64,000 bases of DNA, taken from the NCBI GenBank assembly GCA_963774265.1, contig CAVZDU010000005.1, forward strand, positions 416,001-480,000, given 5' to 3'. Source of the DNA: an uncultured Chloroflexia bacterium (GTDB lineage: Bacteria; Chloroflexota; Anaerolineae; CG2-30-64-16). A program made the translations under genes and the position numbers. Positions 1 to 1,792 of this stretch are shown piece by piece. Under the pieces are notes generated by a model, which saw only the letters and a program-made list of their open reading frames with translations, had not been told where the DNA came from and searched no databases. Numbering within the stretch: position 1 is the stretch's first letter; every line of letters begins with the position of its first letter.

Positions 1-38
1 CCTCGCAGGGCTGAGCGGCCACCGGCACCACGGGCGTG

Positions 39-1124
39 TCAGTCGGGTCTAAGCCTGATCAAGACCGGCAGGTAGCCCCTCCGTGCTGGCATCGGAACCT
101 GTTCGACTGGAACTGCCAAATGCGCGGCAATCGCTGTCGTGGCCTTCACCTGCTCCAGCCAGTAGTCGAGATTCATATGGGCAATCGTGTCTTCTGAGGT
201 GTGGTCGTAGGGAGTTCGTTCGTTCTCGTAGCTCTCGATCTGCAGCCCCGTCGGTATGCCCTTCTCACGGAAGGGGAGCTCGTCCCCTCAGCCGCAGCCG
301 ACAACGAGCCTGGGCGCCAGGTCAAGTCGATAGGCCTTGATTGTCTCACTCATCATCTCTGTCACGACTGTGGATTGCGGACGCCCTCCGTGCCAAAGCT
401 CCATGACGCCATCGCGGTTGCCGTCATAGCCAACCACGTCGATATCTACGGCAACCTTGATGGCGTCTATTTCTGACGGCGAGAGCTGATCGAGATAACT
501 CCGGACTCCAAGCTTACCTTGCTCTTCTCCCGTCGAGAACAGCAGAACCACCGTACGGCTGAATTGTTGGCTGCTGAGAATCCTCGCCACCTCCAGCAGA
601 TCAACTGCGCCACTGGCGTTGTCATCCGCGGCAGGAAACCGTTCTTTGGCGTTTGGCCTGACGCCATCGACATGAGCGACAAGGTAGACCTCCTCGGCCG
701 GAGCACGGGATCCCGGTTTCCTGGCGATCACGTTGCGATCAGAACGTCCGGAACGAGACCAATTCTTAAGCTCAACCGAGTAACCCAGGCTGACAAGCTC
801 TTTGGCAATATAGTCAGTTGCCCGTTTGAGCCCCTCACTGCCGGTCAGCCGATTGGTGATCGTATAGCAGTCGGTCCCGGCACAGATGGGCTCTTCACCG
901 GTCAGCCGGCGGAGATCGCGCAGGGCTCTGGCCCGGTCGACTTGTCCCAGCATCTCTCGTACAACCCCGGTGGGCGAAATGACCGTTGCCCGGCTCGATT
1001 CCGGGAGAGAGACCGGCTGCGCCTCTCGATCCCGCGTTTGCAGTCCGCAGGCCGACGCGATCGCAACCGAGAAAGCCAGGCCCAAGAGAATAGTGACGCA
1101 GAGGGCCAATATTCCTTTTCTCAT
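39..1124 (-). CDS. Secreted M28-family zinc peptidase; in-frame TGA at 288-290 (candidate selenocysteine), full ORF ends at 39
   Basis: Signal peptide and AHVD, ADDNASG, GEEQG, DIDVVG motifs. The frame continues past the TGA as GDELPF..GIP..TPYDHTSEDT..YLPVLIRLRPD*, which is a typical M28 C-terminus. Confidence 0.8.
258..287 (-). promoter_or_regulatory. Putative bacterial SECIS-like hairpin
   Basis: After the UGA: GGGGACGAGCUC-CCCUUC-CGUGA-GAAGGG. The apical loop has G in its first two positions, about 19-20 nt downstream of the UGA. Confidence 0.4.
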
Positions 1125-1156
1125 GAAATCTCCCTCCCTCGCGGCGCTCTGAGTCA

Positions 1157-1792
1157 TTATGCGAGCGATGTGACGGTCGCGTCATGCAGGCTGTAGCGCA
1201 TTCCCACCACCTGCAAACCGCCGTGGCTGATTGCTTCGGCCAACACCGGCTCACCTTTGAGGCGGGCCACGGTCTCGACGATGTGCGCGTCGATGACATT
1301 TGCCACCGGGTCGCCGTCCTGCCCGCGCACCTTCTCCAGCGCAGGGCGGATGCAGCTCATGATGTTCGGAAGATGGCCCTGGGCAGGCGCGTTGGGAGCC
1401 GTCGCCGCGTAACTGGCCACTGTGGCGGTGACCGCGCCGCACTTCTCGTGGCCCAGGACAACGATCAACTGCACGCCGAGGTGCTCGACCGCATATTCCA
1501 GGCTGCCCAAGCTGATATCGTCGAGCACGTTGCCCGCGTTGCGGACGACGAACAGCTCTCCGAGGCCCCGGTCGAAGATGATCTCGGGCGGAACGCGCGA
1601 ATCGGAGCAACAGAGGATCGCAGCAAAGGGGTGCTGCGCCTGCAGCAACTCCTGAGCGCATCCGGATTGCACTGCGCTGCTGAAGCAGCTGTCACGGAAG
1701 GATTGGTTGCCGGCGTGCAAGCGCGCAAGCGCCGCGTCAGCGGGGACGGGTGGGTGGCTGTTCGGGTGGGAGCCGTGACTCTGTGACATCAT
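1157..1792 (-). CDS. Beta-class carbonic anhydrase
   Basis: CSDSRVPPE, VRNAGN, LEYAV and GHEKCGAV motifs. GGAGG RBS before ATG 1792; the longer track ORF is spurious at its N-terminus. Confidence 0.92.
   Translation of the reverse strand: MMSQSHGSHPNSHPPVPADAALARLHAGNQSFRDSCFSSAVQSGCAQELLQAQHPFAAILCCSDSRVPPEIIFDRGLGELFVVRNAGNVLDDISLGSLEYAVEHLGVQLIVVLGHEKCGAVTATVASYAATAPNAPAQGHLPNIMSCIRPALEKVRGQDGDPVANVIDAHIVETVARLKGEPVLAEAISHGGLQVVGMRYSLHDATVTSLA

Follow-up and report, generated by a model that had tools for sequence, protein, structure and literature searches.

Selenocysteine (Sec) is inserted at UGA codons in competition with termination, and in the fdhF gene of Escherichia coli the minimal stem-loop has 17 nucleotides (nt) and lies about 11 nt after the UGA. 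To our knowledge, nearly all known selenoproteins are oxidoreductases; in mammalian thioredoxin reductase, which has a GCUG end (U denotes Sec), a Cys adjoins the Sec residue. Within the M28 peptidases, the aminopeptidase of Aeromonas (Vibrio) proteolytica (AAP) has an active-site loop, loop V, whose Cys223 and Cys227 line the S1 pocket, and the residue after Cys227, Ser228, belongs to the second shell. Loop V is stabilized by a Cys223-Cys227 disulfide (PMC4012986), and bacterial Sec insertion sequence (SECIS) elements are described as having a small apical loop that holds a G (PMC1088965). Here we analyze a stretch of 64,000 nt (the window) from an uncultured Chloroflexia bacterium (assembly GCA_963774265.1, contig CAVZDU010000005.1, positions 416,001 to 480,000), in which a gene for an M28 aminopeptidase on the minus strand contains an in-frame UGA followed by a SECIS-like hairpin. 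We consider it very likely that this UGA, codon 279, is decoded as Sec in a family of probably exported di-zinc M28 aminopeptidases of Anaerolineae; this confidence covers Sec decoding and the family and does not extend to the selenylsulfide bond discussed below.

A conserved UGA within an M28 aminopeptidase gene

Under translation table 11, the open reading frame (ORF) on the minus strand spans 1157..288 and closes with ..LVVGCG, followed by TGA at 290..288; the same frame stays open for 82 codons past this TGA, to a second TGA at 41..39. When translated with TGA as U and compared with its orthologues (alignment A2), the whole coding sequence covers 39..1124 (minus strand), with an ATG at 1124..1122, 361 codons, and the terminal TGA at 41..39. 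Counted from this ATG, the in-frame TGA (288..290, minus strand) is codon 279 of 361, hence Sec279, which is residue 290 in the 385-residue read-through translation; it occupies the same codon in orthologues and aligns with Cys227 of AAP. Two residues before it lies Cys277 (codon TGC, 294..296, minus strand), the proposed selenylsulfide partner, and downstream of it lies His308 in YDHTSEDT (201..203, minus strand), which aligns with ..HTTQDT of AAP and which we take, as we do the other ligand assignments, from the M28 literature to be the last zinc-ligand His. The remaining motifs of the co-catalytic metal site, HVDG (His151), AADDNASG (Asp167/168, with the bridging Asp), TGEEQG (Glu200/201), and D-x-D (Asp229), fall within 438..674 on the minus strand and also align with AAP. 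H151, D167/D168, E200/E201, D229, and H308 are invariant in 8/8 rows of alignment A2, as are, downstream of the TGA, Asp312, Tyr321, and Trp322 in the orthologues. The Pfam M28 model PF04389 matches residues 142-331 of the read-through product, crossing the TGA, with 100.6 bits against a cut-off of 21.3 (E = 1.2e-28), and an NCBIfam scan of the product returned weak aminopeptidase models only and no selenoprotein model. An earlier sequence-only reading of this DNA had described the ORF end ..VVGCG-TGA with its 82-codon continuation, an extension carrying the last zinc-ligand His and a YLPVLIR tail (203..201 and 74..54), and a GDE right after the TGA in place of the usual SDH; all of these are present on the minus strand, the last by comparison with the SDH of AAP.

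The UGA is conserved, and the frame downstream of it is under purifying selection. When 401 genomes from this class were searched in six frames, with an orthologue threshold of E<=1e-48, 8/401 contained an orthologue, and 8/8 carry TGA at the same codon within the motif C-x-U-G-D. These eight orthologues share 46-75% identity with the product and come from at least five families; one is also frameshifted. The frameshift of this orthologue (G079:C6:478531-479465, loci L048 and L049) lies about 60 codons before the TGA, and the TGA and the hairpin are retained; the split reflects either faulty assembly or a gene that was broken recently. A one-genome-per-species collection gave 76 loci, of which 18 are orthologous at 43-75% identity, in metagenome-assembled genomes labelled Anaerolineae, Anaerolineales, Chloroflexota, 'Chloroflexia', or 'Caldilineae', and TGA was found in 18/18. 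Among metagenome contigs there were 79 loci, 56 of them orthologous and 55 covering the site, with TGA in 54/55 and TGT, encoding Cys, in 1/55 (L169). Every TGA-bearing orthologue listed has a Cys at position -2. The metagenome loci partly repeat the genome loci; overall, there are 61 distinct 60-nt site sequences. The tally for the family is 73 TGA loci (the window, 18, and 54) versus one Cys form and one form lacking both residues.

Outside the orthologues, the site looks different. Of the remaining 58 of the 76 loci, 36 have an aligned residue ahead of an SDH-like motif (F in most, otherwise Y, W, A, R, L, or P), 10 leave the site uncovered, and 12 gave spurious alignments of low score; in the 17 paralogous loci of close relatives, the Sec position is occupied by R, A, Y, S, G, F, or E. 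The sequence-only reading had named homologues with TGA or Cys at this codon as the expected pattern, and Arg, Trp, or Tyr without either as evidence to the contrary. The expected pattern was seen in all three collections, with one Cys orthologue (L169, which is protein P0123), and the distant M28 proteins with F, Y, W, A, or R at this position belong to a different clade. Its view that the TGA is not an error likewise holds up, given that the same TGA occurs in independent assemblies, including a contig from another study's RNA library. In the sequencing runs, contigs from independent assemblies span the site without a difference at 288-290; these contigs show that relatives carry the TGA and are uninformative on expression level or transcript ends. 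One 161-nt contig (X7), from another study's metatranscriptome library, corresponds to 218-378 of the window, covers the TGA and the hairpin, and has three differences, none at 288-290. It is a hint of transcription in a relative, given that such a library can also hold DNA.

The public databases hold this family largely in truncated form, and the public annotation gives the gene as a truncated M28 peptidase. Of the best 120 protein-database matches, 117 span no more than 75% of the query and are mostly 277-278 residues long, and 7/7 short entries that were fetched end in GC[G/P/T], exactly before the TGA site. In a 50%-identity library, the top match is the full-length Cys form P0123 (RGCFCADE), 18 of the 23 representatives that follow it end at profile position 275-278, and ordinary M28 proteins with x-SDH begin from 213 bits downward. 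Two full-length entries, P0004 and P0017, from short contigs (1260 and 1617 bases), have W at the site; this W is probably a TGA read under a code-4 gene-caller preset, and neither DNA is among the loci examined. Entry P0005 has neither Cys277 nor Sec279. Hundreds of entries ('M28 family peptidase', 'hypothetical protein') are cut off at the UGA and lack a zinc ligand, and the hairpin together with the motif C-x-U-G-D-[EV]-x-P-F-R offers a simple rule for re-annotating them.

A quick maximum-likelihood tree was computed for 59 rows with Sec, six outgroup M28 proteins, P0005, and the Cys form, with partial and duplicate loci left out. In this tree, the Sec family forms one clade with a Shimodaira-Hasegawa-like approximate likelihood ratio (SH-aLRT) of 100. 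P0005 falls within a set of seven rows that also contains the gene of the window (SH-aLRT 98), and L169 falls within a set of 51 rows (SH-aLRT 95) on a branch of 0.79 versus a median of 0.17; because of this long branch, the placement of L169 is unsure. Read most simply, this topology suggests that Sec is ancestral to the Anaerolineae clade and that the Cys form and the form lacking both residues are secondary losses. A branch of over fourfold the median length suggests that L169/P0123 evolved faster once Sec and the hairpin had been lost.

A hairpin under RNA-level selection and the Sec machinery

The SECIS-like hairpin occupies 259..275 on the minus strand, with the 5' arm CCCUUC at 275..270, the loop CGUGA at 269..265, and the 3' arm GAAGGG at 264..259; it was delimited by a consensus fold and covariation. 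It has 6 bp and a 5-nt loop, follows a 12-nt spacer (287..276), and takes up nt 13 to 29 after the UGA, just where the sequence-only reading had placed it, and the consensus fold of the first eight orthologue sequences is the stem CCCUUC/GAAGGG exactly. Over the 61 distinct sequences, 96.7% of 366 cells are paired, versus 48-66% when the 3' partner is slid by one to three columns, and 0/500 shuffles match either the observed covariation score or the observed paired share. The third stem pair is CG in 54 sequences, AU in 2, UG in 2, UA in 1, and other in 2, and includes three compensatory cells, in L066 and L178 (C-G to A-U) and in L165 (C-G to U-A). In L178, the stem is kept (CCAUUC-AGUUU-GAAUGG) despite a change of the peptide to PFSLNG. 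Furthermore, the codons of the hairpin are nearly free of synonyms among 64 distinct orthologue sequences (CCC 57/62, TTC 63/63, CGT 60/63), while in 63 other conserved degenerate columns the share of the major codon is 0.53 at the median and 0.87 at most; nowhere else in the gene is synonymous conservation as strong as in the hairpin codons. The loop G at alignment column 35 is invariant (61/61), and in the Cys form L169 three of the six stem pairs, as read from its sequence, are unable to form. Taken together, these data show that the hairpin is under selection at the RNA level. An Rfam scan of window positions 1-1300 gave chance-level matches and none at the hairpin.

The genome of the host (5.5 Mb, 10 contigs, 84% complete, 62.6% G+C) was also checked for the Sec machinery that the sequence-only reading presupposed, and selA, selB, selD, and tRNA-Sec were all found. 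The selB match is above its cut-off with 293 bits, or 333 with a C-terminal piece; selA scores 506 bits split over two frames, selD 382 bits, and tRNA-Sec 73 bits. The two adjacent selA frames (G000:C1:1423592-1424922, L009 and L010) match model positions 2-388 and 387-453, a frameshift in the assembly of the kind expected from indel errors, which the sequence-only reading had noted elsewhere in the window; stops are also present in the EF-like matches at C7:12502 and C1:946984. The selD gene (G000:C1:464620-465552, L011) has its own in-frame TGA in SACAGU (CAGU motif), followed by a hairpin, and we conclude from this combination that SelD is itself a selenoprotein in the host genome. In addition, selB and tRNA-Sec were found in 5/5 other orthologue-bearing genomes tested. 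TGA is still used as a stop in the orthologue-bearing genomes, where it ends the gene described here and 7/8 orthologue frames.

Proposed decoding of the UGA and possible role of the Sec residue

In the mechanism that we propose, the 17-nt hairpin, 12 nt downstream of the UGA and within the coding sequence, would serve as a bacterial SECIS and recruit SelB with Sec-tRNA(Sec), whereupon the ribosome would insert Sec and proceed for 82 codons. The codons read through would supply the last zinc-ligand His and the C-terminal tail, and the second TGA (41..39), which has no hairpin, would terminate translation.

Several observations weigh against this proposal. With 19 sequences, the shuffle control for covariation was reached in 28/500 cases, as the stem varies little, and double changes occur in only one of the six stem pairs; some of the nucleotide conservation could be due to the encoded peptide, P-F-R-x-K-G. 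In a 76-nt context, the fold has z = -0.76, with 38/200 shuffles as good, and the minimum-energy fold favours another helix, while the 23-nt hairpin of the window alone (-8.0 kcal/mol, z = -2.28) is equalled by 5/200 shuffles. Because this single-sequence fold is weak, the significance of the hairpin comes from the comparative data. As to the machinery, the tRNA-Sec model RF01852 is over its cut-off in 5/14 control genomes too, some of which presumably do not use Sec, and for this reason the tRNA-Sec matches are weaker evidence than the selB matches. selB itself is over the cut-off in 339/401 class genomes, so that its co-occurrence with the M28 gene is uninformative; this tally includes the unpublished genome G362, on which no other result rests. 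The sequencing runs gave small shares (0.16 or less) of the stretch, as contigs, and no reads of the source sample. Finally, the presence of selenium in the protein is deduced from sequence evidence.

Three other accounts of the UGA have to be set against Sec decoding. A pseudogene whose TGA arose by nonsense mutation or through faulty assembly would be in keeping with the frame errors elsewhere in this long-read-like assembly, such as the split selA and the EF-like matches with stops, and CGA to TGA is a common mutation. This account is next to negligible, however, given that the same codon is TGA in 8/8, 18/18, and 54/55 orthologues, which come from independent assemblies and share as little as 43% identity, that the 82 downstream codons are open and conserved, including the zinc-ligand His, and that independent contigs, one of them from an RNA library, show no difference at 288-290. 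We give as little credence to a reassigned code, by which these lineages would read TGA as sense throughout: the open frame past the TGA speaks for it and nothing else does, whereas TGA ends this gene at 41..39 and 7/8 orthologue frames, the matches to selB, selA, and others are open under table 11, and in the databases table-11 gene callers stop at the site. A somewhat more serious, though still quite improbable, account is that the conserved UGA is not read as Sec and leads mainly to termination after 278 residues or to hairpin-stimulated near-cognate read-through as Trp, Cys, or Arg. In its favour are the W that P0004 and P0017 have at this position, the competition of Sec insertion with termination, and the sequence-based nature of the case for selenium. 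Against it, the 278-residue product would lack His308 and be unable to bind the second zinc in the M28 manner; the size, spacing, and loop G of the hairpin are those of a bacterial SECIS (for the loop G, see PMC1088965); the genome has the full Sec machinery; and Cys, the classical partner of Sec, is the only sense codon found at the site in orthologue DNA. We therefore prefer Sec decoding of codon 279.

What Sec279 would do in the enzyme can be approached through AAP (PDB 1AMP/1RTQ), the best solved sequence relative of the product (E = 1e-20). The alignment sets ..vvgCgUgdelpf.. against ..tCgyaCsdhasw.., which pairs Sec279 with AAP Cys227 and Cys277 with Tyr225, counted back from the chain numbering of the alignment. 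Sec279 would accordingly sit in the active-site loop that corresponds to loop V of AAP, and, judged by this alignment, the suggestion that a Cys-x-Sec pair is located next to the active site appears sound. An AlphaFold2 model of the product (mean predicted local distance difference test score, 70.8; predicted template modelling score, 0.74) matches SGAP, AAP, and LapA with a probability of 1.00 and a TMt (TM-score normalised to target) of 0.57-0.74, and related glutaminyl cyclases as well, so that the product is predicted to have the M28 aminopeptidase fold; a solved S228A mutant of AAP is among the fold matches (title of 3b3v).

The AAP-type disulfide pattern, C-x3-C before SDH, is not found in the product, in which the second position is Sec and the first Cys lies at -2. 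The Cys277/Sec279 pair resembles the AAP disulfide in place and, as far as the alignment can tell, probably in role, yet it is not the same pair. Its members behave as a unit: the Sec forms all read C-x-U, the Cys form reads C-x-C (C-F-C), and P0005 has lost both residues. From this behaviour we infer that a selenylsulfide between Sec279 and Cys277 may have taken the place of the loop-stabilizing Cys223-Cys227 bond, fixing or redox-gating the S1 side of the active site, and we regard the odds for such a bond as about even. The location of the partner Cys at -2, not at -4 as in AAP, speaks against it, as does the lack of Cys at both of these positions in the nearest Chloroflexota M28 proteins without Sec; the Cys-x-Sec pair may therefore have arisen anew and not descend from an older disulfide.

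A different role for an inserted Sec, as metal ligand, nucleophile, or substrate-contact residue and not as part of a structural selenylsulfide, seems rather unlikely to us. The change from S-D-H to G-D-E would fit a rebuilt second shell, the residue after Sec corresponds to AAP Ser228, for which the solved S228A mutant (3b3v) exists, and the near-fixation of Sec (73 TGA versus one Cys and one with neither) suggests that Cys substitutes poorly for it, as is seen more often at catalytic than at purely structural sites. On the other hand, Cys277 always occurs with Sec and both are lost in P0005, so that a bonded pair fits better than a lone ligand, and the five canonical ligand motifs are intact, which means that no ligand needs replacing. 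More speculatively, and with some doubt, we can imagine that Sec279-Cys277 acts as a low-potential switch by which ambient redox conditions or oxygen gate extracellular peptide cleavage, or that the selenolate is in direct contact with the zinc site. If so, the protein would be the first metallopeptidase to depend on selenium, as well as an exported selenoprotein whose Sec cannot be replaced by Cys, and this inability of Cys would explain the near-fixation of Sec in the clade.

Gene surroundings, probable export, and comparison with described systems

The likely start of the gene is the ATG at 1124 (MRKG..) and not position 1157, judging from a Shine-Dalgarno stretch and from the starts of orthologues. 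A GGAGGGAGG-type Shine-Dalgarno stretch lies about 6-7 nt upstream of this ATG, and the purine-rich Shine-Dalgarno-like stretch read from the sequence at 1131..1140 on the minus strand (AGGGAGGGAG, coding strand) may act in ribosome binding. The N terminus carries a predicted signal peptide with a lipobox-like Cys (MRKGILALCVTILLGLAFSVAIASAC, 1047..1124, minus strand); the corresponding residues in orthologues are LLAGC or LVSAC. The signal peptide, the lipobox-like Cys, and the C-terminal tail suggest that the protein is probably exported, attached to the surface, and perhaps lipid anchored. A second invariant Cys pair, EEPIC-x4-C (residues 81 and 86), is found near the N terminus of the mature protein, and the orthologues L046 and L047 have an additional C-x4-C right before AADDNASG; these pairs are probably further disulfides of the exported protein.

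At the other end, the tail YLPVLIR (54..74, minus strand), four residues before the end, is kept in orthologues, even after long Pro/Thr-rich linkers. The motif [YF]LP[LIVFM][LIVM]x[RK] is found within five residues of the stop in 11 frames of the host genome, with 5 occurrences elsewhere; from the inner rate, 0.19 terminal frames would be expected. Besides the copy in the window, the terminal copies lie on contigs C1, C3, C5, C6, and C9 of the host genome (G000), in carriers that are mostly large and presumably secreted proteins, and the same tail ends the distant Chloroflexota M28 proteins P0148, P0153, and P0163. The tail may be a C-terminal sorting tag.

Upstream of the gene and on the same minus strand lie genes for a beta-carbonic anhydrase (PF00484, 1157-1792) and, beyond it, a YgjP-like metallopeptidase (PF01863, 1858-2598); downstream, outside the window, is an aldehyde:ferredoxin oxidoreductase gene (PF02730/PF01314, L022 1-1209, minus strand). 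Among 25 orthologue loci with 1.5-kb flanks (18 genome loci plus 7 that largely repeat them), the carbonic anhydrase neighbour is kept only in the genome of the same genus and the aldehyde:ferredoxin oxidoreductase recurs in none. We considered a conserved operon and rejected it, as these loci gave no neighbour clue. The aldehyde:ferredoxin oxidoreductase fits an anaerobic lifestyle. Anaerolineae are abundant in sludge and sediments, and the enzyme may be relevant to peptide turnover there.

Full-text literature searches returned no M28 or other metallopeptidase selenoprotein, in agreement with the sequence-only reading, which knew of no characterized example. Neither 'peptidase' nor 'M28' occurs in the main texts, including tables where present, of PMC9312934, PMC13188914, PMC13326102, PMC12013277, and PMC1976440; the family described here was not found in main texts, and the supplementary lists of BSepDB (111 families) and deep-Sep, or two papers by Haft, could include it. 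In PMC2398784, the only protease selenoproteins named are trypsin-like and MucD-like serine proteases.

The decoding mechanism proposed here is the standard bacterial one; what is notable is the occurrence of Sec in a zinc hydrolase, its probable export, and the near-fixation of Sec, which, as far as we know, is the reverse of most selenoprotein families and makes this family a good system for asking what Sec does beyond Cys. An exported zinc exopeptidase with Sec in its active-site loop would widen the known uses of selenium and would be a natural case of a loop disulfide swapped for a probable selenylsulfide. As in fdhF decoding in E. coli, the UGA is closely followed by a hairpin that lies within the coding sequence and has a conserved G in its small apical loop, and the genome encodes SelB, tRNA-Sec, SelA, and SelD; unlike there, the stem and loop sequence is family-specific and has no Rfam match, and SelB binding is predicted. 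The trypsin-like and MucD-like selenoproteins of the Global Ocean Sampling data (PMC2398784) are also predicted secreted hydrolases without a known redox role that have Sec at the place of a conserved Cys, but they are serine proteases with 9 Sec versus 128 Cys forms, whereas ours is a zinc metallopeptidase in which Sec is almost fixed. A homologue of ferredoxin-thioredoxin reductase with CxU (PMC9312934) has, as here, a Cys near the Sec and is capable of forming a selenylsulfide; in that protein and in thioredoxin reductase, the pair is the catalytic redox centre of an oxidoreductase, whereas here it lies in the loop of a hydrolase. The closest likeness is to AAP, with which all metal-site motifs align and in which Cys227 stands at the position of Sec279; the two differ in that AAP has C-G-Y-A-C and S-D-H where the protein described here has C-G-U and G-D-E, in an overall identity of about 22%, and in the lipobox-like signal peptide and the YLPVLIR tail of the latter.

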